The notes: a model not told the origin generated them from the letters alone. DNA of 50,916 nt from a virus (IMGVR_UViG_3300021420_000008:1-50916), one strand, 5' to 3'. Numbered from the stretch's first letter, positions 6,701-26,739 are shown. Program-made: numbers and translations.

Positions 6701-8831
6701 GATCACCAAGTATCTGAAGAGCCTCGGAGCCAAGGAGGTGACAGATCAATTCGGTCACACCTGGCACGAAGTTTCTGTCCGCTCCGGCGTACCGAAGCGA
6801 GTCTTCGGCGCCTCCGATCCTCGCTATCTGGCCAAGCTCGCTGCTCTCGGCGTAGGGGCTGCCGCAGGAGCCTACTTCAGCACTCAGGACAAGAAGCTGA
6901 TCGGCGCCATTGAGGGGACTCTCGGTGCTGCTGCCCTCGTGATGTTCGGTCCAGGTCTCGCTGCTGTAGTGAAGGACATGCGAACACCTGATACGCGAAT
7001 CAGGATCACGCACATAGGAGATGATCACGAAGAGCTGGTCCACCGCCTCGCTATCCACACGATGCAGGAGCAAACTAAAGTTGAGAACCTGGTGCCCCGC
7101 ATTGCGGATCGCGAGCACCTCACGGCCTGGCTGCGAGGGGACAGGAGCAAGCCCCTGAATGCCGAGCAGCAGAAGGCCCTCCCGATCATCCGCCAGTGGT
7201 TCCAGATCGCGGGAGGTCTCCAGGGCCGGACGGCTAAGGCTGCTGCTTCGCGATTCGCCCGCTCCTCGGCGAATATGAAAGACATCAGCGCGGTGATGGG
7301 CGCCTTCGGTCACGCGGTGGCGAGGTCGATTGCTGACACCCGAATGCTCGATGCGCTGGAGACTACCAAGGATCCAGCAGGCAATGGCCTGATCACGAGT
7401 CCCCAGAAAGCTCCCGCGGGCTACGTCCACCTGGAGCATCCGCTCCTCTCCGGCTACAGCGTACATCCAGACATCGCGACCAGCCTGCGGCTGATGCTGG
7501 ACACTCCGCACCCCGTCGCGGCGAAGCGAGTTGCCTGGGCCCTGATGCAGGGGACGAAGCGAGCCCTCGTCTCTTTTAGCCTCTTCCACGCAACAGCCCT
7601 GAGCTTCGCTTCCCAAGCTGCTTCCAGCAACCCCGTCAAATTCATCAAGCTCTATGCTCAGGCCGTTGCTCCGCGAGTCTTCGGGGAGAACCTCCTCATC
7701 AAGGCTGTGCGCGAACAAGGTCATGGTGCTCCGATTATCGACGATGCGATAAAGGGCGGCCTGACCTGGAGCCTCGGACGTGAAACAGGCGGTGTGGAGG
7801 ATGTGGGCAATTTCTACGCTGGAATGCACGACATCGCGAAGCTGGCGGAGAGCGTCCCCGTCCTCGGTCAGCCCCTGGCCATCGCCACTCGGAGCCTCAT
7901 TAAGCTGAACCAGAAATTCGACGGCTTCATGTGGGATCGCCTGCATGCAGGGATGAAGCTTGATCTGTTCGCGGAGAAGTTTCAGCAACTCCTAGAGAAC
8001 AACGCCAGAGCGATTGCGAAGGATCCAAAGATCAAGGCCTTGTCCAGACGTCAGGCGGCGACGATTGCGGCGCAGTATTCAAATGCGATATTCGGAGGAC
8101 TGAACTGGCGCAGGGCGGCAGAGAGTGTTCAGAGCCGGCTGCTTCGTGACGTGACTTCGAAGGGCTTCTCCCCCTGGTCCCGCCGAATCGCGCAGGTGGC
8201 CTTGTTCGCTCCCGATTGGCTGGTGTCGACTGCAACACCGTGGTTCGTCGCTGCCTTTGGCAAAGGTACTGGCATCAAGGGAGTCCTCAATGCCCAGACG
8301 CTCGCCGACTTGCATCGTCAGTACTTGATCCGCTCCGGCCTCTTCTACCTCGTCGTCGGCGACGCTATCAACCACGCGATGTCAGGCCATCACATTTGGG
8401 ACAACAAGAATCCCCTACAGATCGACCTCGACCCTCAGGGCGAACGCCACATGATCTTCAACAAGCACCTGTTGGAGGTCCCCCACATGCTCCAGGATCC
8501 GACGAAGCAGATCCTTGGGAAGCTGAGCTTTCCTGTGAAGGAATCTCTCAACCAACTCTTCGGGACTGAGTATCTGTCCATCAAGACCGATCCCCGAACA
8601 GGGCAAGTCAGTGCTGGTCCTGCGATGGAAGGCTCCCGGCTCGGCCACGCAGCAAGGGGGCTGGAGCCGATTGCTGTGCAGCAAGGCTTCGGCGGCGGAG
8701 CCGATGCGGGGATGGCAGGCTTTTTTGGCCTCCCCGTCTATGGCCGGACGCGGGAGCAGAAGCTGCAGGATGCGGCGGAGCGCAGGCGGAAGCGAGTGCG
8801 GCAGCACATCGATCAATTGCTGAGCAGATGA
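3798..8831 (+). CDS. large internal virion / ejection protein (1677 aa), possibly polyvalent
   Basis: Size and position; N-terminal PWERxWG repeats; Gly/Ala hydrophobic segments; central GHF..YGHTR..EMQSD globular block. Confidence 0.7.
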   Translation: MNPWERPWGSDQAASGAVAGADAPAADAPSTKVPTSVGKPWERKWGEAAKPEAKAEAKPSSPDLALASGGLKPGEVPEASAGEAAKLNVFTNFLSKESARPRFNPDTGEPEKPTFQDALESARLKSNFFSSVAEGFSKLGRKYAPKMPEALGGVDLDTIASRIRTGLATPAETFTYNNLLKDLVDGYKISAQEDHRGFAEALEGTLSAAIDNPGNFAGQLVAGLIQDPEMLALGGMGTGSKLAGMVKQYKKAAEAAGVGAEATAGGALMSAAGQYADRGEVRLPQLASEAVQIGLPMGMIHAVKGLRAKPGEEPATKPATEEDFPDSKSFKDYLETQVDEHVAKAQQRIEPGPLKPVEVATPERPFSDAKKWETSRLERIRDAAELRIAESKAKFESSKATDRRRRMKSLGTEEQGEHAQRLEDQLKQIKDELAERKGEGPSAGVVAGAALGATAAALAMANPDVRDKASTGAIVAAVFLGMPEGSRALSPVLKAAERSGRVLERLNERSPGKTEFKKVELLSEINRQDVPKAEKEALQRVIEQFPGESVKSADLVHHFQLETQNFELKPETTQRYAPLGLDRVDRGSYGVKAQTDVWKLPESWNIPAKGHFEAMGPNQYGHTRSFVEGDVRHVVEMQSDLQQHLAPMSEDQIKAENTSLSNINTGIEVFNDLNATIQASPTGLRSALSRWPAIWRGLGWEPRGAFFSWVNESTPSLEKTALQRLDPEGRKQEVSGAHEAISAVYDNKMKELQYNVKAKGYEQVKGYRIVPRKIQVKTGTGLRSEVVSDAWDVVVDYQPRDFMNREDSGPARQAIEHVDSGSILYNLVNQGWVPHDFGLTLRAAVETLNMKRDETSARLGNEPAKAELRERIRPIGEKIWPRRLIQEEIARASREGRDKIRFGDAEVVARIEGWQRRTAEWKNVRKTLLADPDISDTDRTTLEAEMAKLTDSFVSPKHQSIYDRYRDEITKYLKSLGAKEVTDQFGHTWHEVSVRSGVPKRVFGASDPRYLAKLAALGVGAAAGAYFSTQDKKLIGAIEGTLGAAALVMFGPGLAAVVKDMRTPDTRIRITHIGDDHEELVHRLAIHTMQEQTKVENLVPRIADREHLTAWLRGDRSKPLNAEQQKALPIIRQWFQIAGGLQGRTAKAAASRFARSSANMKDISAVMGAFGHAVARSIADTRMLDALETTKDPAGNGLITSPQKAPAGYVHLEHPLLSGYSVHPDIATSLRLMLDTPHPVAAKRVAWALMQGTKRALVSFSLFHATALSFASQAASSNPVKFIKLYAQAVAPRVFGENLLIKAVREQGHGAPIIDDAIKGGLTWSLGRETGGVEDVGNFYAGMHDIAKLAESVPVLGQPLAIATRSLIKLNQKFDGFMWDRLHAGMKLDLFAEKFQQLLENNARAIAKDPKIKALSRRQAATIAAQYSNAIFGGLNWRRAAESVQSRLLRDVTSKGFSPWSRRIAQVALFAPDWLVSTATPWFVAAFGKGTGIKGVLNAQTLADLHRQYLIRSGLFYLVVGDAINHAMSGHHIWDNKNPLQIDLDPQGERHMIFNKHLLEVPHMLQDPTKQILGKLSFPVKESLNQLFGTEYLSIKTDPRTGQVSAGPAMEGSRLGHAARGLEPIAVQQGFGGGADAGMAGFFGLPVYGRTREQKLQDAAERRRKRVRQHIDQLLSR

Positions 8832-10153
8832 AGATCCTCATCGTCGATCCAGCCTCGGCTGGCCTGAATTTCGCCCTTCGCTGCCAATGGGCGGGGCATG
8901 AGGTTAAGCTCTTCATTCCAAGGCTCTCGGAGGGCGAACTCTGCTTCGATGTGGGCGACGGCCTCGTGCCCAAGGTCCCGGAGTGGCAGCCGCACATGAA
9001 GTGGGCAGACCTGATCCTAGTAACAGGCAACGATAAGTACGTGAATGAGCTGGAGCCCTTCTTCCGCGAGGGATATCCCATTGTAGGTACGAATCGAGAG
9101 AGCGCTCAGCTGGAGCTGGATCGCGGAGTGGGGCAGGAAGCCCTTGAGAGTTGCGGCATCGACACCCTGGACTATGAGGAATTCACCTCCTATGAAAGAG
9201 CAATCGAATTTGTTAAGAAAGAGAAGAAGATCTATGTCTCCAAGCCCTGGGGAGGGGCGATTGACAAATCACTCAGCTACGTTCCCCAGTCCCGCGAAGA
9301 CCTCGTCTGCCGCCTCGAACGATGGAAGCAGGAGGGCCTTCGAGGCAAGTTCATCCTCCAGGAAAAGATCGACGGAACAGAGATGGCTGCGGGTACCTGG
9401 TTCGGGCCTGGAGGCTTTAGCCGCTATATCAACGAGACCTGGGAAGAGAAACGGTTCATGAACGACGGCTATGGGCCGAATACAGGGGAGATGGGCACGG
9501 TGCTGAGGTATACGAAGAAGTCCAAGCTCTTCGAGGAGGTTGTGAGGCCCCTAGAGCCTCGCCTTCAGGAATTGGGCTTCGTCGGCAACGTTGATGTGAG
9601 CTGCATGATCGACCGAAGCGGCCGCCCGTGGCCGATGGAATTCACCATGCGCTTCGGCTGGCCGGCCTTCAATCTCATGATGTCGCTACACCAGGGAGAT
9701 CCCGCAGAGTGGCTCCTTGCTCTGCTGGAGGGTCGCGACGTGCTCGAATGCTCCCGCAGCCTGTGCTGCGGCGTGCTGATGACCTTAGGCGATTACCCCT
9801 GGTGCAATTGGACTCACGATCAATGCTCTGAGTGGCCCATCAGGGGCCTCTCCGCGGAGGTGATGGATCATGTGGCACTCACTTGTGTTAAAATGGGCCG
9901 CGCTCCGACAGAAAGTGGCAGCCGCATCGAGGACAGGGATTGCCTCGTTACGGCTGGTTCTTACGTTCTGGTCGCCTACGGACAAGGAAGAACCGTCGAA
10001 GCTTCCCGACAAGCCGCCTATAAAGTAGCTGATCAGATCTCCTGGCCACCACACATCAACTTGAGGACCGACATTGGCTGTCGGCTGGAGAAGGGCTTGA
10101 AGGAGCTTCATCGCCACGGCTATGCAACGGATGTAGAGTACGATGGGAACTAA
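8828..10153 (+). CDS. PurD (phosphoribosylamine-glycine ligase)-like ATP-grasp enzyme, divergent
   Basis: YVSKP, FILQEKIDGTE, EEKRFMNDGYGPNTGEMG (PurD: D.GPNTGGMG), EFTMRFGWP (PurD: EFNxRFGDP), RTDIG; lacks the N-terminal GSGGREHA motif. Confidence 0.8.
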   Translation: MKILIVDPASAGLNFALRCQWAGHEVKLFIPRLSEGELCFDVGDGLVPKVPEWQPHMKWADLILVTGNDKYVNELEPFFREGYPIVGTNRESAQLELDRGVGQEALESCGIDTLDYEEFTSYERAIEFVKKEKKIYVSKPWGGAIDKSLSYVPQSREDLVCRLERWKQEGLRGKFILQEKIDGTEMAAGTWFGPGGFSRYINETWEEKRFMNDGYGPNTGEMGTVLRYTKKSKLFEEVVRPLEPRLQELGFVGNVDVSCMIDRSGRPWPMEFTMRFGWPAFNLMMSLHQGDPAEWLLALLEGRDVLECSRSLCCGVLMTLGDYPWCNWTHDQCSEWPIRGLSAEVMDHVALTCVKMGRAPTESGSRIEDRDCLVTAGSYVLVAYGQGRTVEASRQAAYKVADQISWPPHINLRTDIGCRLEKGLKELHRHGYATDVEYDGN

Positions 10154-15163: not shown

Positions 15164-16378
15164 TCACGTTTTCTGCGTAGGCTCCGGATCCACTCCAACA
15201 TAGCGCAGTAGCCTCCCCTGCCCATTTATCTCCATCCGGACCTTCCCCAGCTGCAGCACTCCCATCAGGATCTGCTCGAACTCGTGGAAATTCGGGAACT
15301 GGTGGTGGATTTCATGATAGGCCTCTTCGTAAGTGCAGGTCCGATGTCGCTTCACGAATTCGACCAAGCGATCTGCTCCCATTGCGGCCTCATTCTTGCC
15401 AATCAGGGCAAAGACCTTCTCGAAGTCCGGCTCCACGCTGATCAGCATGCCATTGGCGTCCTCGAAGTCCTCAATCTCCAGCTGCATTGAGTCCCGTCGG
15501 GAGGCGGCCAGAATCATCGCGAGCTTACACAAGTGAGTTTGCTTCCTCGCCAGATAGTTCCGCATGATCGGTGAGCTGCACTCCGGGTACACCTTCTGCC
15601 ACAGATCCTCATACCAGATCTTCTCCCACTCTCTCGCTTCTGGCGTCTCCGTGAAGGGCCCCACGAGGTTGAGGCTGATATGCTCCAGATCACTGACGAG
15701 TGCCCTCCGCACCATCTCAAAGTCCTCCGCCGCGACCTCCTGGCTCGGATCATAGATCAGCCTCGCCTTCTCTTCTCGGTACACAAATATACAGCGTGAG
15801 GTAAAACCGCCCCCAACGGCAAGCCGCGGCATATTCTCTGCTATTGCGGGAGGAGTAGTGCAGCCCAGAAGGGTTATCCAGGGCGCTTCGACGATGTCCT
15901 TCCCATTCATCTTCGTGCTCTTGTCGAACCGTCTGCGACCATCCCACAAAGTGATGAAGAGGTTCACCATATCCCTGTCCTGCATGTTCAACAATAGCCC
16001 CAACTCGCTTGACACTAAGGTGATTGCCGACATCGGGTAGTGTTCGTCCTGATAGAGGAAGCTTTCGCAGCTCCCCGCAAAAGCTGTAACGAGCGACTGC
16101 CAGGTGATCGAATCTGGACCGAAATTGATTCCAGGCACTTCCCGCAACATGTCCAGCGCCAAATCGGCCGTAGAAGACTTGGTCACCACTCCCGGCGGAG
16201 CCACTAATATCACATAGAAAGACGGATACCATTTGAAGGTTCTTCGGTCGATCCAGACCTTTCGCCGCAGGGCTCCGCTGAGGGCGCATACCGCACTCCA
16301 AAAGTGCATAATGCCAGGGGCCTCAGTCACGGAGGCCCACTCGACATAGGTCTTCAACCAGTCCTCTAATTGTCTCAC
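15164..16378 (-). CDS. DUF3987-like P-loop ATPase (putative replicative helicase)
   Basis: Deviant Walker A APPGVVTKSS; LVSSELG; LWDG; GGGFTSR arginine-finger-like motif; coupled to the polymerase gene. Confidence 0.6.
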   Translation of the reverse strand: MRQLEDWLKTYVEWASVTEAPGIMHFWSAVCALSGALRRKVWIDRRTFKWYPSFYVILVAPPGVVTKSSTADLALDMLREVPGINFGPDSITWQSLVTAFAGSCESFLYQDEHYPMSAITLVSSELGLLLNMQDRDMVNLFITLWDGRRRFDKSTKMNGKDIVEAPWITLLGCTTPPAIAENMPRLAVGGGFTSRCIFVYREEKARLIYDPSQEVAAEDFEMVRRALVSDLEHISLNLVGPFTETPEAREWEKIWYEDLWQKVYPECSSPIMRNYLARKQTHLCKLAMILAASRRDSMQLEIEDFEDANGMLISVEPDFEKVFALIGKNEAAMGADRLVEFVKRHRTCTYEEAYHEIHHQFPNFHEFEQILMGVLQLGKVRMEINGQGRLLRYVGVDPEPTQKT

Positions 16379-18885
16379 TTACAATCGCCCCACGAAATCC
16401 TCGAGGTCTTGACTCCAACCGGAATCACAAGAGGATCTTCGTAGGGGATTGTAATGCTCGACAGCTTGCGGAGTTTTTCAATGCTTGCGTCATGACGATG
16501 ACTAGGAAATTGCCCTGCGAGGGAGTCGTGCACCTGCAGTAGGACTTCAATCTCTGGTGCCTGCTCCCAGAGGTTCATCCAGGCTCTGTTGATGGCACAA
16601 CCCACTGTGCTCTGAGGTATCCAGGCAAGCCACTCTGGAAGTCCACCTTCGAGTCGATCGAAAATATACCAGCGATAGCCGAATGGATTCTGAACGAATC
16701 TGTGTCGAACAACCCATTCTTCGGTTCTTCGTTGCCATGCCAAGATGCCAGGATGAGCTCCAAACCAGAGAGCTTGTGCTCTCTCGACAGTTGCGACAGT
16801 CTCTCCCAGCTTTGGGGCGAGACCTCTAGCTGTAGCACCATAGTCAGTTGCATGCACGAACCTCTTTGCAAATTCCCGTCCGCCTCGCATCCTGTCGCGA
16901 TAGTCCCAATAACACCTCGGGCCGCAGGAACAGGCCTCTTCCCTGGAGTGACGCTCAATCAGCTCTTCCAGGGGAGGAGCCTCGCGTCCTGCGAGCACAA
17001 AGGCGTTGAGGAGATGAAGATCAACGCCCAAGCGAAGGGCAGCCTGTAGCATGCTATCGCGAGCCTCCCACACGACAACCTGGAGATCCGCTCGGTCGAG
17101 GTCCAGGTCAAAAAATGTGAATCCTGAATCAGGCCCAAACATAGTGCGTATATTCGGGAGCTGGAGCTTGGTTCCCCTCTTTTCAGCCTTGCTAACAGAC
17201 ATCGATTTGTCAGACGGAATGTTCTGGAGATTGGCTCCAGAACCAAAGGCGTTTTCTGAGGAGGACAAACGATAACTATACGGGGCAGATTTTCCACTCG
17301 TAGAGCCTCCGATGTTGTAAGAGCAGCGCATTCGATTATCAACGTCCAGCCGCTTGGTGAGCATTTCCATGAACTTGCCCAGCGTGCGGAGGTCAGCAAT
17401 CGCGTCGGTGAGGGGCTTCAGCAGGGGCTCCCGCTCCCCGATCTTGGTCAGCGCCTCATCGTTGCAGGTGACGTGAGCGGGCGCATTCTTCGTCGCTCGG
17501 GTCATAATCGCAGGCTGGGCGAAGTCGCGATAAAAGAGCGTCGTCATCTGCGGGTAGGAGCCGATGTTCAGCTCGTGGCCGAGGACCTCATGCAGCATGC
17601 CCTGGCCCGAAGCGATCGCCTCTTGTGTCTCCATAATTAGCTTATCTCGCTGTTCCGTCCTGACACGGATTCCGCGGAGCATCGCTTTGAGAACGGGGTA
17701 AAAGAGACGCTGCTGAAAATCGTGCACTTCCCCCAGGCCGAGTTTTTCGACGGAGCGAAGCTCGGCCTCCCCGCATTCTCGGGTGTAGACGCAGTCTTCG
17801 AGGTTATAACTCCAAAGCTGCTCTTCCCCCATCTTTGGATCCCAGTTCTTCCCCTCATCCTTCCAGTAGACATAGTGCCGTGCGTACATCGAGGCCTGGA
17901 AGTACAGGGCCTTGGGGAGCTGGCAAAACAGAGTGTGCTGCGAGATCATCGTGTCCTGGACACCGTGCGGGATAAAGTGCCAGTGGCGATGAATGTACTG
18001 CGCATCATAGAGGCCGTTCTGCCATCTCACCTTCACCCGAGGATTAGTAAGTAGCCGGAAGAGGAGCCAGATGATATGAGCTTCCTCGTCGAGAGACCAA
18101 TATCCTGAAGCTCGCTCGACGCACATGAAGGGTATTGACACTCCTTCTGTGAGGCTCCAGGACAGCCCACAACAGGCAATGTGACCAGCCCTGGTTTCAA
18201 GGTCGAGTTCGATCCACAGATCATCAGTCTGGGCTCGATCAATAAGTGCTTGAAGAGTCTGCACTGTTTGATTGAAGGTCGGCCGGATGAGGAATCGCCA
18301 CGAGGGTTTGTCATAGGTTCTTGTCTCACTTTCTCTCCGCGCGCGGCGAAGGTCGCTTACAGCAATGGCTCGCTGATCCCACTGACGCAAGATGGCAGCG
18401 GGGTGGATGGTAGGGATTAGCTTGGGAGAGTCGGCTCCGTCGAGCTGGAGGTGGCTGCCGCGCCACTTCATAATCCCCTTGCGGCCCGTTAGCGCCCAGA
18501 GGGGGTAGCCCCCGCAGCCGACAATGAGGTTAGGCTTAACAGCGGCAATTTCCTGCTTCAGATGCTCAAGCCCAGCGATGAACAGCGGCGCGACCTTGGT
18601 GTCGCGGAAGGGGATGAAATCCTTGGGACAATCCCGTCCCTTCCAGTACTTGGCCTTCTTGTCGAAGATCCAGGCTGCGAGTTCATTCTCTGGCGGGCGA
18701 GCGTTTACTAAGTTGCTGACGTAGATGTCGGAGCGCATCATGCCAGCCTCTTGAAGCATGCGATTCAGCTCCAGACCAGAGGCGCCGACGAAGGGGATGC
18801 CTTTGCGCTCCTCCTCCGCGCCCCAGGCTTCGCCGACGAGCATCACCTTCGCGGGGATTGGGCCGTCGCCAGAGCGGAGATGCAT
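16375..18885 (-). CDS. polA: family A DNA polymerase with N-terminal uracil-DNA glycosylase-like domain and 3'-5' exonuclease
   Basis: UDG: VMLVGEAWG, PFVGASG, TIHPAAILR; Exo: LDLET, QNGLYD, YNLED; Pol: RLSSS, NLQNIP, motif A DLDRADLQ, motif B AKRFVHATDYG, motif C LQVHDSL. Confidence 0.92.
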   Translation of the reverse strand: MHLRSGDGPIPAKVMLVGEAWGAEEERKGIPFVGASGLELNRMLQEAGMMRSDIYVSNLVNARPPENELAAWIFDKKAKYWKGRDCPKDFIPFRDTKVAPLFIAGLEHLKQEIAAVKPNLIVGCGGYPLWALTGRKGIMKWRGSHLQLDGADSPKLIPTIHPAAILRQWDQRAIAVSDLRRARRESETRTYDKPSWRFLIRPTFNQTVQTLQALIDRAQTDDLWIELDLETRAGHIACCGLSWSLTEGVSIPFMCVERASGYWSLDEEAHIIWLLFRLLTNPRVKVRWQNGLYDAQYIHRHWHFIPHGVQDTMISQHTLFCQLPKALYFQASMYARHYVYWKDEGKNWDPKMGEEQLWSYNLEDCVYTRECGEAELRSVEKLGLGEVHDFQQRLFYPVLKAMLRGIRVRTEQRDKLIMETQEAIASGQGMLHEVLGHELNIGSYPQMTTLFYRDFAQPAIMTRATKNAPAHVTCNDEALTKIGEREPLLKPLTDAIADLRTLGKFMEMLTKRLDVDNRMRCSYNIGGSTSGKSAPYSYRLSSSENAFGSGANLQNIPSDKSMSVSKAEKRGTKLQLPNIRTMFGPDSGFTFFDLDLDRADLQVVVWEARDSMLQAALRLGVDLHLLNAFVLAGREAPPLEELIERHSREEACSCGPRCYWDYRDRMRGGREFAKRFVHATDYGATARGLAPKLGETVATVERAQALWFGAHPGILAWQRRTEEWVVRHRFVQNPFGYRWYIFDRLEGGLPEWLAWIPQSTVGCAINRAWMNLWEQAPEIEVLLQVHDSLAGQFPSHRHDASIEKLRKLSSITIPYEDPLVIPVGVKTSRISWGDCK

Positions 18886-19452: not shown

Positions 19453-19853
19453 TCACCTTCTCTACGCGCCTGCCGATTGTCTAGTATTACTTCCCTATTC
19501 TTGTAATAATTAGCTGTAGCGCATGCTTTGTGATAGAAGTAATCTCCCTTTCCTGCATATGCTCCTTTGCGCTTTACTTGACTCATCGTTGCAGGATTAC
19601 ACCAAACCTTACAGAGATAACATTTGCGATAGTCAGGATTACCGCTGGCCAGGAGCGCTTCTGTTCTTGTGTGTAGAAGAAAATGATATTTCTGATCAGG
19701 ACAGATCACCAAGTTATTGTTCGTGTTCGCCGGATCTAGGTCTATATGATGCACTTGTTCACTCCCTTTCAGTTCTCGTCCTAGAGCCTTTTCTGCTAAA
19801 TAGCGATGCAGTGTATTGCCGTGACCGCCTGTTTTCGGGTATACGTAAGTCAT
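19437..19853 (-). CDS. HNH homing endonuclease
   Basis: LHRYLAEKALGREL..QVHHIDLDPANTNNNLVIC..H motif; AT-richer than its flanks. Confidence 0.85.
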   Translation of the reverse strand: MTYVYPKTGGHGNTLHRYLAEKALGRELKGSEQVHHIDLDPANTNNNLVICPDQKYHFLLHTRTEALLASGNPDYRKCYLCKVWCNPATMSQVKRKGAYAGKGDYFYHKACATANYYKNREVILDNRQARREGDWRRN

Positions 19854-21175
19854 TTCAGCCCCATTAGTCTTTTCAATGCTATTCCGTAAGATGCTTGATC
19901 TTTCTCAATAGCTGTAGCGAACAGCTTAAGGCTGTGTGCTGCAGCAAGGATAGTACCTGTACCACAGAATGGATCTAGTACTCTGTCACCTGGCAGACAA
20001 CTACGGCCGAGTAAATCAGCGAATAACGCAACTGGTTTTTGTGCGGCGTGACCGAGGTTGTCGTCAGGAGGGAAGGTGAGGACGTCGCCCTGGAGGAGAT
20101 TGCACGTCCGGGAGCCCTTCAGGGCGTAGAGAATCAGCTCATACTTCCTTTGCGGCCCCATCTGCGGCCAGGGAGCACGCATCCCGAGGGGCTTATACCA
20201 GACCAAGGGCGTGCGGAAGGGCTTCCAGCCCACACGCTGGAAGGCGTCCTTGAGCCAGCAGAACCAGTCGATGTCACAGAACATGTACAGGTGCGCATCG
20301 GGCTTGGCCACGAGGAACGATAGTTCCGCGAAGCGGGTGAATAGGGTTGCGGCTTCCTGCGGATCATCCGCATAGCCGTGGGGGAGATTGCTCATCCCTC
20401 CGCTGTCTCCGTACTCGTCCGCCCCGATCCCGTAGGGAGGATCAGTGAGGATGCAGGCGAACTGGTCCGGCGCCGCTTCCGAGAGCCAGCGGATGGCGTC
20501 GATGTGCAGGAGGGAGTGAGAATGCCTTCCGTAGGTCGGACCCATCTGCTTGGCCACCTCCGTCGCCCTGGCAGCGACCTCCTTGCGCTGGATCAGCTTG
20601 AACGCTGGCCTCAGGCCGCCTGCATCGCGGACCTCGGGATCGTCCAGATAGCGGGAGACGATTAGCTCCATTCGAGCTGTCTGTTGCGCGACTCCGATCT
20701 CGTTCTCGGTTGCGACAGCGAGGGGGTCGATGTAGCGCTCGATGCCGATTTCCTTACTCCCTGGTTCTGGCATTCCAGCTGCCTTGGCTTGAAGTCCTCG
20801 CAAGCGAGCGAGCAGGGCGGTGGCTTCTGCCTTCTCCACCCAGGTCAGATCGGTGCGAATGCAGTTCTCATCGTACTCGCACTGCAAGGCTTCCAGCGGC
20901 TCTAGCTCCCCCAGCTCAACACAGGGCGCCGCACCGAGGACGATCTTGCCCTCAAAGCTGTAACCCATCCCCAACTCAGTCATGTCCCGCAGGACGCGGA
21001 GGCGGCGCTCGCCTGACACGAGGGTGGTTGACCCGTTGAGCTGGCGGACGACCAGCGGAAGCTGAAGGCCGATCTGCTCGATGGAGGCCTGGAGTTCCTG
21101 GAGCGCCTCCGGCTTGAACTCCCTCCGCTGGCGATTTTCGGGGACCTGGATGTTGGCGATTGGTATTAGCTGCAA
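19850..21175 (-). CDS. ParB-like domain fused to N6/N4 DNA methyltransferase (beta class)
   Basis: ParB: RQRREF..LQASIEQIGLQLPLVV..LVSGERRLR; MTase: TDPPYG, HAAQKP, VLDPFCGTG. Confidence 0.88.
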   Translation of the reverse strand: MQLIPIANIQVPENRQRREFKPEALQELQASIEQIGLQLPLVVRQLNGSTTLVSGERRLRVLRDMTELGMGYSFEGKIVLGAAPCVELGELEPLEALQCEYDENCIRTDLTWVEKAEATALLARLRGLQAKAAGMPEPGSKEIGIERYIDPLAVATENEIGVAQQTARMELIVSRYLDDPEVRDAGGLRPAFKLIQRKEVAARATEVAKQMGPTYGRHSHSLLHIDAIRWLSEAAPDQFACILTDPPYGIGADEYGDSGGMSNLPHGYADDPQEAATLFTRFAELSFLVAKPDAHLYMFCDIDWFCWLKDAFQRVGWKPFRTPLVWYKPLGMRAPWPQMGPQRKYELILYALKGSRTCNLLQGDVLTFPPDDNLGHAAQKPVALFADLLGRSCLPGDRVLDPFCGTGTILAAAHSLKLFATAIEKDQASYGIALKRLMGLK

Positions 21176-24997: not shown

Positions 24998-25296
24998 AGG
25001 TTGGCCTCGATCCAGTCAGCAATTTCGGCGAAGGAGCGACCGCTGTCGTTCATCGAGGCGATGTACTGAGCATTCTTGGGCGACAGTACCCAGTGAAAAC
25101 AATGCGGGCTCACACCGAGGACGTACTGCAATAGCCCCAGCGCGCAGAACCGATTCGCGCCGGTTGTGAGGGCGCCTTTAACCTGAACGAAGTTCCCTTG
25201 GCGGAGCACGCGGAGCCATTCCAGCTTCATCGTTTCCGGCATCGCGTGTGCGGGCTGAGCTTCGGCGAACAGTACTGGCTCGTTCATGTTAGACAT
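24994..25296 (-). CDS. hypothetical protein
   Basis: FCALGLL...MNDSGRSFAEIADWIEANL; GAGGAG RBS. Confidence 0.6.
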   Translation of the reverse strand: MSNMNEPVLFAEAQPAHAMPETMKLEWLRVLRQGNFVQVKGALTTGANRFCALGLLQYVLGVSPHCFHWVLSPKNAQYIASMNDSGRSFAEIADWIEANL

Positions 25297-25347
25297 CTTC
25301 TTCTCCTCTGCTGGTTGTAATCGGCCCCCTCGCGAGGGCCGCTTGGA

Positions 25348-25470
25348 TCAGTGATCAAAAATGATCGGATCAGGTTGAGCGGAACTACCAGTACCACCGG
25401 TAACTTCCTGGAGCTGCTCTGGTTCCAACTCGACCAGTTCTACCACCTCGACGACTTGTACATCGTTCAT
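25348..25470 (-). CDS. 40-aa double-glycine-leader precursor peptide (not in ORF track)
   Basis: MNDVQVVEVVELVELEPEQLQEVTGG|TGSSAQPDPIIFDH; AAGGAG RBS 9 nt upstream; GC hairpin at 25322-25341 just downstream. Confidence 0.7.
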   Translation of the reverse strand: MNDVQVVEVVELVELEPEQLQEVTGGTGSSAQPDPIIFDH

Positions 25471-25545
25471 GATGTGGTTCTCCTTCAACGCCCTGTGTTG
25501 CCCTGCACCGGAGCGGGCGGATCCGGGGCAGGTCGATCGACTGAG

Positions 25546-26739
25546 TCATGGCTGATTCCCGGTGGGCTTGCGTCGTTTGTGCCAGTCGTGTAATTGAGCG
25601 GCTGTTTGCGGGCTTTCCTCCAGCTCGTGCTCGAAGGCCAAGGCGGCGCGAGCAGCATCAAACTCAACCGTCTTGCGGTCTGCAACTCGCACAACCCCTT
25701 CTAATGCAGATCGCAACTGTTCGATCTTTGCATCCTTCTCCCTCACCAACCTGTCGTGGATCTCGCGGGGGATGGCGTCGGCTAACTTCTCGCGCAGTTC
25801 ATCGCGATCGTGCAGCAATGCTTCGGCCCATTCGTTCGGCGAGCGGGCTTCATTATCGCGTGTCCAGCCGCTTGCGCAGATCGAGCCAATGTCGCGCCAT
25901 TGTTCCTCAAGCTCCGCGATCTTCCCAAGCAAGACGGTGTAATGCGGCTCCGGGCCCTTGCCGGCTAGCGGTTGAGAGCCAACCTGCTGGGGGTCGTCAA
26001 TCTGGTGCTCATCTCCAGATAGCTCACTGGCCCCCAGCAAGCCCCGAGTTTCCTCGGGCTGCCGCGTCTCTCGACCGGCATTTTCTTGATTCGATGAGGC
26101 TGGCGGTTGAGGGGCGGCGTACAGCGGCTGCCACTTGCACGGCATACTGGGCGGCTCAATCGTGCTTGGATCATAGCTGCTATATGTAGTTGCGCCGTAA
26201 TTTCCGCAATAGCGCCACGCTACCGGCTTCGTGTCCGGGGAAGGTTGAGGGACGGCGTCAAATAGATACCTGCGGCTAACTGCGGCCGGATTCTCCGGTT
26301 CGCTGGCATAGCCCAGGTGCTCATTACCGTTAGCGAACTTCTCGATGTAGGCCACCGCCTTCGCCTCCTTGATCTGTGCCAGAGCGCGCTCATCTGGCGG
26401 TGTGCTGTGAAATTCGCAAGCCCTACGTAACCGCTCAATCTCCGCATCCTTCTCCGCGATCAGCACGGCGGCGGAGGGAGGGACGGCGTATATGGCAGTT
26501 GTAGGATTTAGTCTGCTACCGTGTCTGAACATTAAAACGCTAATCGACAGACAATCTGGATCTTTCAATTTGTCAAATTCTGATGTTAGAGCGTGTGCCA
26601 CCGGCTCCGGCTGCTGCGCAAGGGCGGCGTCGATGCGGGCTATTAGCTCGGCATCCGGCTTGCTCCCGACGCCAACGAACACATAGCTATCGAGCCTGTC
26701 GCGCGCCTTCCGCAGCAGTTCGCGCAATGGGTCAGTCAT
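25546..26739 (-). CDS. mosaic early protein (Ead/DUF551-like modules)
   Basis: Repeated EPVA/PVAW..PLYAAPQP modules and coiled coils. Confidence 0.55.
   Translation of the reverse strand: MTDPLRELLRKARDRLDSYVFVGVGSKPDAELIARIDAALAQQPEPVAHALTSEFDKLKDPDCLSISVLMFRHGSRLNPTTAIYAVPPSAAVLIAEKDAEIERLRRACEFHSTPPDERALAQIKEAKAVAYIEKFANGNEHLGYASEPENPAAVSRRYLFDAVPQPSPDTKPVAWRYCGNYGATTYSSYDPSTIEPPSMPCKWQPLYAAPQPPASSNQENAGRETRQPEETRGLLGASELSGDEHQIDDPQQVGSQPLAGKGPEPHYTVLLGKIAELEEQWRDIGSICASGWTRDNEARSPNEWAEALLHDRDELREKLADAIPREIHDRLVREKDAKIEQLRSALEGVVRVADRKTVEFDAARAALAFEHELEESPQTAAQLHDWHKRRKPTGNQP

Follow-up and report, generated by a model that had tools for sequence, protein, structure and literature searches.

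An orphan double-glycine-type pro-peptide gene in soil phages as a candidate client of host peptide exporters

The virus genome IMGVR_UViG_3300021420_000008, which was analysed over its whole length of 50,916 bp (hereafter the window) and is recorded as complete, with direct terminal repeats at its ends, carries on its minus strand a small gene for a 40-amino-acid product, MNDVQVVEVVELVELEPEQLQEVTGGTGSSAQPDPIIFDH. Judging from comparisons across its relatives, residues 1-26 of this product are a conserved leader of the double-glycine (GG) type, and the remainder is a short predicted cargo. GG-leader peptides are an established bacterial device for pheromones and bacteriocins. We propose that the gene encodes an orphan phage pro-peptide which would be cut after Gly26 and exported by a peptidase-containing ATP-binding cassette transporter (PCAT) of the host, releasing a short, unmodified extracellular peptide; we give this proposal about an even chance. 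Cleavage, export and an extracellular role are what we infer from the sequence, and a signalling function of the product would be a further step, to which we attach a rather low probability.

The small gene, its leader and its relatives

The initial annotation had noted a 40-residue open reading frame (ORF) with an AAGGAG ribosome-binding site (RBS) and a downstream GC hairpin, and all three are present on the minus strand, the hairpin at 25341-25322. The ORF runs from an ATG at 25470-25468 to a TGA at 25350-25348, and its product contains nine acidic residues and neither Lys nor Arg. An alternative in-frame TTG at 25488 would extend the product to 46 amino acids; this TTG falls within the Shine-Dalgarno sequence, and ATG is the start codon in the public gene calls of relatives.

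Several lines of evidence argue for a genuine gene. Between the window and the related viral record G001, the proportion of synonymous differences (pS) in the peptide frame is 0.755, which is saturated, against a nonsynonymous proportion (pN) of 0.162, and the differences at codon positions 1, 2 and 3 number 9, 2 and 21. In the same comparison the in-phase antisense frame gives a pS of 0.37 and a pN of 0.28, and the shifted frames contain stops. The overlapping frame from ATG 25549, which had been raised as an alternative target of purifying selection, shows no sign of it: its pN is 0.36 against a pS of 0.06, it contains stops, and in G001 the equivalent frame terminates 19 nt into the peptide gene. 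Window DNA is contained in eight DNA sequencing runs, all labelled soil metagenome and with no RNA run among them. Contigs from other soil runs, when aligned to the window, display 16 variant sites in the ORF, 13 of them at third codon positions; at the residue level the changes are confined to V4A, T24A (position -3) and T27K (position +1), accompanied by one in-frame deletion of 3 nt, with the assignment of variants to contigs inferred from depth values.

Among 21 distinct DNA sequences of the family, Leu at -12, Leu at -7, Val at -4 and Gly at -2 and -1 are invariant, and are encoded by four, three, three, two and four synonymous codons, respectively. Indels within the family preserve the reading frame, and frames that overlap the ORF show no conservation. 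The peptides of the window and G001 are 70-72% identical, compared with 26-58% for six other shared ORFs (26% for a terminase-region protein and 37% for an ATP-grasp protein). Because pS is saturated and pN low, because residues stay invariant while their codons turn over, and because the peptide is more alike than the other ORFs, the ORF is evidently a genuine gene under purifying selection and is among the most constrained genes of these phages.

In the window peptide, L12, L15, L20 and V23 occupy positions -15, -12, -7 and -4, and G25-G26 fill positions -2 and -1. The GG is preceded by a stretch of 24 residues, and leaders across the family are 23-27 amino acids long; double-glycine leaders in general run to about 15-30 residues and close with G-G, G-A or G-S. 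Q, E and D alternate at position -8, there is free variation at -3 and -6, and the deviants from Val at -4 are one Ile and one Asp. The N-terminal part of the leader is unusual, since it consists of a V/E-rich stretch, VVEVVELVEL. For PCAT substrates, passages of one published account give the consensus L(-12)xxxE(-8)L(-7)xxxxG(-2)G(-1) and describe a leader helix from -10 to -4 that docks on the C39 domain, with a hydrophobic knot at -7 and -12 and a tuning of specificity by -4 (PMC6959990). The invariant columns of the phage family coincide with the PCAT-recognition positions -12, -7, -4, -2 and -1. The initial annotation had read ELxxxxLxxVxGG as a leader of this class, and this is borne out: the N-terminal 26 residues are conserved, the defining positions are invariant, and leader and GG are kept in homologous loci.

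On its own, a motif match would carry little weight, because the six frames of the window contain seven instances of hydrophobic residues at -15, -12, -7 and -4 followed by G-[GAS], three of them in open frames of at most 100 codons; conservation in relatives evidently places the leader motif far above chance. Model searches point in the same direction. When 12 family members were compared with NCBIfam at E<=1, all six families matched were families of GG-leader peptides, namely NF038167 (six of the 12 members), TIGR03949 (five members, best E 1.4e-5) and, with a single member each, TIGR01847, NF033772, TIGR03893 and NF033383. Four of the five Pfam families matched are likewise of the GG-leader kind: PF10439 (Bacteriocin_IIc) was found with five of the 12 members (best E 0.016) and Mersacidin, ComC and Lactococcin with one each, the fifth family, HUN, being an unrelated match to an acidic region. 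When a profile of the family was run against all PDB chains, five sequences came up at E<=10, and CtA, a substrate solved together with PCAT1, takes the first three places, aligned on ELxxxxLxEVxGG (E 0.044, 0.31 and 0.43).

About 25 distinct relatives are known from soil metagenome contigs and from four other phage contigs. A word-based search of 5.8 billion proteins returned three close relatives of 36-38 amino acids, and a profile of five sequences, run against 1.84 billion representatives, found 12 proteins at E<=1e-3, and peptides of 35-54 amino acids with the same build as the window peptide account for nine of them; the clusters of the profile matches add ten short variants. The long profile matches P0005, P0011 and P0013 are repeat proteins with few profile positions matched and were set aside as artefacts. 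P0021, a protein of 479 amino acids in the cluster of P0010, is by eye a Mur-ligase-type enzyme and was rejected as an artefact of clustering.

At the DNA level, a degenerate pattern encoding V-E-L-x-x-[ED]-[EQD]-L-x-E-[VI]-x-G-G matched four viral contigs, all of which have a short ORF with such a leader. G001 and G002 carry the core with the motif P-D-P (PDP), and the diverged core NVPGLVVAFA is found in the two viral contigs G003 (L143) and G004 (L144). The same DNA pattern in bacterial genomes gave, among the matches listed, at least 50 short-precursor-like ORFs in at least 43 loci; one of these, a Burkholderiaceae peptide whose leader ends in VELSLEQLAEVSGG, lies directly upstream of HlyD and a 712-amino-acid C39 PCAT. 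A stricter DNA pattern drew 47 metagenome contigs: a family member is present in 29, of which two are identical with the records G001 and G002, nine have other short GG-leader ORFs, and nine have no short ORF at the match. Cores of the IVLGSRGGGGFGRMML type stand behind similar GG leaders in six metagenome contigs (L157, L168, L185, L190, L192 and L199), and soil phages may harbour orphan GG peptides more widely.

The family has been seen on phage-like contigs only, with no member among the bacterial genome loci listed. A search for related loci with peptide alignments found nothing in genome or metagenome contigs. In the cultured-phage collection, the 2.9-kb region has no blastn match and the peptide no tblastn match, where low-complexity filtering could be hiding the V/E-rich leader; the two phages nearest by terminase (an Alcaligenes phage and a spring-water virus) lack such an ORF, and PHROGs contains no family that matches the peptide. 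The ESM Atlas links the peptide, at a score of 0.90, to two clusters, one of them of type-A lantibiotics and the other unnamed; few features are shared, which makes this a lead only.

The cargo and the candidate fates of the product

Across the family the cargo is 9-27 amino acids long, and indels of 0-9 residues are concentrated immediately after the GG. The conserved core motif is P-D-P-[F/I/H]-[I/V]-x-[D/N/G]-x. The cargo is free of Cys, has no conserved Ser, Thr or Lys, carries no net positive charge (it is acidic or neutral), and is neither amphipathic nor Gly-rich. Its size matches that of the Gram-positive GG-leader pheromones and not that of pore-forming bacteriocins, with model support in the form of single weak VP1 and EntF matches. 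Because it seems unmodified, Cys-free and non-cationic and has a conserved motif of P-D-P followed by two hydrophobic residues, the cargo looks like a signal rather than a pore former, which agrees with what the initial annotation had said of its core. That annotation had also taken a conserved leader with a variable core as a mark of a signal. Here the outcome is divided: the residues right after the GG do vary in sequence and length, but the PDP-hydrophobic motif is conserved, a pattern which fits one conserved product with modest variation and not a strain-specific set of signals. The interpretation is thus partly supported: a real gene with a GG-type leader and without a PCAT, immunity gene or modifying enzyme beside it has stood up, and a signalling or decoy role would be a further step.

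Core units are repeated after one leader, as in multi-core precursors, in two members, P0008 (HVVNYG, PDPHVVNDG, HILND) and L158 (YHILNDG, DPHVVNN; 2608-2654 region). Such repetition suggests that function resides in the short hydrophobic unit.

According to the proposal of host-mediated export, the gene would be an expressed accessory gene of the early minus-strand block, encoding a pro-peptide with a GG leader in residues 1-26. A short helix of the leader (-12 to -4) would dock on the C39 peptidase domain of a host PCAT, which would cut after Gly26 and, together with its membrane-fusion and outer-membrane partners, export the cargo TGSSAQPDPIIFDH (14 residues, 9-27 in relatives). Candidate receivers of the cargo might be other infected cells, uninfected hosts or competitors. 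If a host PCAT does process the peptide, phages would be inserting their own products into bacterial channels for peptide export and signalling, and peptide-based phage communication or host manipulation would reach soil phages of probably Gram-negative hosts. We speculate that this could be the first phage signalling peptide to travel through a host PCAT, released early in infection by soil phages of Gram-negative bacteria and present in multiple copies in some precursors, an extension that we consider doubtful. Should it hold, the PDP-hydrophobic peptide could report infection density to other phages or reprogramme neighbouring host cells, as a channel of peptide communication beyond the arbitrium of Bacillus that makes use of a bacterial export pathway hijacked by the phage. 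The family has few members and clear limits, and testing it would cost little: precursors have 35-54 amino acids, a cleavage site is predicted and the product is synthesisable.

A number of observations weigh against export by a host PCAT. The C39 domain PF03412 is absent from the complete window and from the related viral records G001-G004, and a Pfam scan of 76 ORFs of the window revealed no ABC transporter, no C39 peptidase and no modifying enzyme next to the peptide gene; the initial annotation had likewise said that the phage lacks a PCAT, an immunity gene and a modifying enzyme beside the peptide. A tblastn search of 264,662 bases (the window, four viral records and 29 metagenome contigs), whose positive control detected three of three PCAT loci, turned up neither a PCAT nor HlyD; the PCAT partner is hypothetical because the family-bearing DNA contains no such gene. 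Neighbours were taken as same-strand ORFs of at least 60 amino acids within 3.5 kb in 29 loci, with Pfam run on representatives of 10 clusters, and no conserved receptor-like neighbour is among them. Homologues of the cargo in bacterial or archaeal genomes number 0 of 128 among the matches listed, which cover at least 120 loci. On the side of the leader, P0001 has A-G in place of G-G and P0017 has Asp at -4, the window peptide alone reaches 13.0 and 12.4 bits where the curated cut-offs are 32 and 33 (E 0.086 for the CTB bacteriocin family and 0.15 for the lichenicidin A2 family), and the E-values of the CtA matches in PDB are marginal. Small acidic early phage proteins, moreover, mostly act inside the cell. 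A C39 domain occurs in only 26 of 61 sampled genomes (the 26 include the unpublished G033), all from one candidate order, that of a bacterium with a similar leader, and the figure bears on plausibility only; on this count, a host PCAT is plausible and far from assured.

There is a serious rival, which we regard as possible though not probable: the whole 40-residue protein could act inside the cell as a small acidic effector, binding for example a defence protein or one of the host, in which case convergence would account for the resemblance to a GG leader. Such a role would suit an early accessory region with Ea22-like, RecT, NinB and HNH genes, the missing link to a transporter or receptor gene, the sub-threshold matches to leader models, and the conservation of leader half and core half alike, as is expected of a single folded or binding unit. 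It is harder to reconcile with invariant sites that match the PCAT-recognition positions one for one, and with model matches which belong, in all NCBIfam cases and in four of five Pfam families, to GG-leader peptides. Length variation of 0-9 residues exactly after the GG, together with the two members that repeat the core, would also be hard for a compact unit to tolerate.

The leader could instead be the active part. As a decoy, it would occupy the C39 domain in a PCAT of the host, or in a stand-alone C39 peptidase, and block the maturation or export of host bacteriocins, of peptides made on the ribosome and modified after translation (RiPPs) or of quorum signals, the cargo being secondary. 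The evidence for the leader serves this reading just as well as it serves export of the cargo, the gene is an orphan without its own transporter, and PCATs are described, in passages of PMC7018657, as accepting several peptides, some from other strains or species. We nevertheless consider it unlikely, in that the PDP-hydrophobic motif is as conserved as the leader, with synonymous turnover, which a pure decoy would not need, and nothing in the data points to the use of a host PCAT against phage.

A distinctly slim chance is left for a RiPP precursor whose core would be modified, before or after removal of the leader, by the phage ATP-grasp protein (8828-10153) or by a host enzyme. The window does encode this GARS_A/GARS_C-like enzyme, the peptide-bearing G001 has a copy, and the core contains a conserved Asp. 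However, the enzyme lies 15 kb off, on the other strand and in an apparent structural (late) block, it was not found in the G002 fragment, and the core lacks conserved Cys, Ser, Thr and Lys; near the peptide, no modifying enzyme is present among the representatives of the 10 neighbour clusters from the 29 loci.

Class II bacteriocins have a cargo of several tens of residues, hydrophobic or amphipathic, and an adjacent immunity gene. That the phage carries such a toxin or a microcin to kill competitors of its host is very improbable, even though a GG leader is typical of these toxins and class II microcins are abundant across bacteria as far as presented in PMC12219008: the cargo is too short, at 9-27 residues, acidic or neutral, and neither amphipathic nor Gly-rich, no conserved immunity-like small membrane protein adjoins the peptide in the 29 loci, and lysogenic conversion is not evident because there is no integrase among the 76 ORFs. 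Finally, it is scarcely credible that the ORF is a chance frame, or that it serves the gene behind it as a leader or regulatory upstream frame, as the stop/ATG overlap (ATGA) in G001 and the conserved upstream hairpin might suggest. Its amino acid sequence is conserved despite saturated synonymous change, the gene that follows changes from the window to G001 and to the MSDETE-type loci, and in the window that gene stands behind a hairpin and has an RBS of its own.

Relation to known peptide systems

The family resembles the PCAT-exported GG peptides (CtA/PCAT1, ComC/ComAB, TIGR03949, NF038167, PF10439) in its short precursor and N-terminal leader of 23-27 amino acids, in having Leu at -12 and -7, Val or Ile at -4, Gln, Glu or Asp at -8 and G-G at -2/-1, and in its model matches, which range from sub-threshold to weakly significant, with CtA the best in PDB. 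It differs from them in being phage-encoded and orphan, with no PCAT, HlyD or immunity gene nearby, and genetic linkage to a transporter is therefore not part of the likeness. The cargo of CtA has 66 residues (PMC6959990), whereas the phage cargo is far shorter and unrelated to bacterial cargo among the matches listed. Taken as a whole, the family is evidently a phage-borne variant of the known bacterial GG peptides.

With the GG pheromones of Gram-positive bacteria (ComC, BlpC, VP1 NF033772, EntF-type NF033383) it shares a mature size of 9-27 amino acids, the absence of Cys and of a modification site, and single weak matches of members to the VP1, EntF and ComC models. Those pheromones sit beside two-component or Rgg-type receptors and a PCAT, an arrangement that passages of PMC7018657 support in part. 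The phage family, in contrast, has no linked receptor or PCAT, and its phage hosts are probably Gram-negative.

The orphan GG peptides of bacteria likewise lack a linked PCAT, and the Burkholderiaceae operon peptide has nearly the same leader end. In proteobacteria, RaxX/RaxB of Xanthomonas is a signal peptide system with a GG leader. That bacterial GG peptides can lack a PCAT closely associated or co-regulated with them is described in passages of PMC7018657. The orphan and proteobacterial peptides are encoded by chromosomal genes of the producer, whereas the phage family resides on phage-like contigs.

The arbitrium system also has to be compared. Its AimP peptide is exported by means of a Sec-type signal, and the system includes a regulated switch between lysis and lysogeny. 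AimP/AimR and the present family both involve a short phage-encoded pro-peptide and a signal-sized product, and arbitrium is described for phages of Bacilli, with an adjacent AimR receptor (PMC13220667, PMC12768286). Here we find a leader of the GG/PCAT type, no linked receptor in the 29 loci and no lysogeny genes among the 76 ORFs. The peptide gene is not an arbitrium system, since a receptor gene beside it is lacking and the export signal belongs to another class.

A literature search, with the supplements of papers outside its reach, found no description of a phage-encoded GG-leader family without a transporter. One large metagenomic survey of RiPPs removed viral contigs before analysis (PMC11118758).

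The locus, its upstream element and hints at the host

The features of the locus are collected in Table 1. The genes around the peptide ORF all lie on the same (minus) strand. The hairpin behind the stop has a free energy of -18.6 kcal/mol (z -2.28), equalled by three of 200 shuffles; it has no U-tract, and a simple terminator scan does not call it. The next gene, beyond this hairpin, starts at an ATG at 25296 with its own RBS and encodes 100 amino acids.

Table 1. Features at the peptide locus and an example of a neighbouring pilin gene; positions refer to the window unless a contig is named.
Feature	Position	Strand	Basis or remark
Pro-peptide gene	25348..25470	-	40 codons plus TGA stop
Leader, residues 1-26, with G25-G26 at its end	25393..25470	-	Invariant columns, published consensus, model and profile matches
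Predicted cargo of 14 amino acids, TGSSAQPDPIIFDH, with conserved PDP-hydrophobic motif	25351..25392	-	Alignment; release predicted
Shine-Dalgarno sequence AAGGAG	25480..25485	-	9 nt 5' of the ATG
GC hairpin	25322..25341	-	7 nt past the stop; 8 GC-rich pairs plus tetraloop
Conserved upstream hairpin or inverted repeat	25503..25531	-	Covariation, alignment A6
Pilin gene (example)	L170:3020-3781	+	Pfam

Conservation extends beyond the ORF. About 70 nt 5' of the ATG are conserved at the nucleotide level in 21 distinct sequences, and this stretch is judged not to be coding because its indels are not multiples of three. A near-invariant block, CAGGGCGT(C/T)GAAGGAGAACCACAT, encloses the AAGGAG and is at least 90% conserved in the same 21 upstream sequences. 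Farther upstream lies a stem of 9 bp, in which CTGCCCCGG (25531-25523) pairs with CCGGTGCAG (25511-25503) around the 11-nt loop ATCCGCCCGCT; across the alignment its general form is a 9-bp stem with an 11-nt loop, ANNCGCCCGNN. In alignment A6 (n=21), 90.5% of cells pair, against 30-59% in slid controls, and four of the nine pairs are changed on both sides, a covariation score that was reached by none of 500 shuffles. Single-sequence folds of the region are no better than shuffles (z -0.13, -0.70 and +0.98), Rfam has no match in 25200-25700, and a promoter scan found no sigma-70-like promoter in 25000-26000. The stem could be an RNA hairpin or a palindromic operator bound by a protein. As the upstream element, the RBS and the ORF are conserved across otherwise very different phages, they appear to travel as a compact unit through very different phage genomes.

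The gene directly downstream of the peptide is not the same in the window, in G001 and in the MSDETE-type loci. The downstream 100-amino-acid gene of the window was tried as a partner and rejected, in that its seven relatives in viral contigs have no adjoining GG peptide. In G001 the stop of the peptide overlaps the next ATG (L009 4120-4123, ATGA), where the window has the hairpin and a separate RBS, and this overlap suggests translational coupling of the peptide and the next gene in G001.

On the upstream side, the window has a protein of 397 amino acids (25546-26739, minus strand) with no convincing Pfam or PHROG family match, which belongs to what we take to be an Ea22-like family. Across the 29 loci, Ea22-like proteins stand upstream in 25, and the other neighbours include an HNH endonuclease, RecT, NinB and several unknowns. 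The upstream proteins share an N-terminal module, LRELLRxAR ... RIDAALA ... PVAW, to which no Pfam family corresponds; they are paralogous and often present in several copies. Nine of the 29 loci, L170 among them, encode a type IV pilin 0.2-1.5 kb downstream of the peptide gene, recognised by Pilin and by a methylation motif at the N terminus, and a pilin beside a putative exported peptide hints at a host with type IV pili.

The host is probably a Gram-negative soil bacterium of the proteobacteria, a placement that draws on hints only. The virion parts are GP4/SU10-like, as structural genes of the window resemble those of GP4- and SU10-type podoviruses in Pfam, and a lipoprotein-like gene lies beside the endolysin. 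The nearest cultured terminase is that of an Alcaligenes phage, with 36% identity, and the type IV pilin genes of related contigs add a further hint. No tRNA genes that could serve host inference were found.

Farther downstream of the peptide, the window encodes a PD-(D/E)XK exonuclease, AAA_24, a ParB-methyltransferase, a DNA polymerase A fused to a uracil-DNA glycosylase, and a primase. The ATP-grasp ORF at 8828-10153 (plus strand; GARS_A plus GARS_C, PurD-like) is placed between ORFs of 1677 and 615 amino acids in the apparent structural or late block; it is the sole candidate for a peptide-modifying enzyme in the genome, and its G001 copy is the 37%-identical protein mentioned above. The ORF at 19850-21175 (minus strand) combines a ParB domain at its N terminus with an N6/N4 DNA methyltransferase, and the ORF at 16375-18885 (minus strand, 836 amino acids) joins a domain of the uracil-DNA glycosylase superfamily to a family A DNA polymerase.

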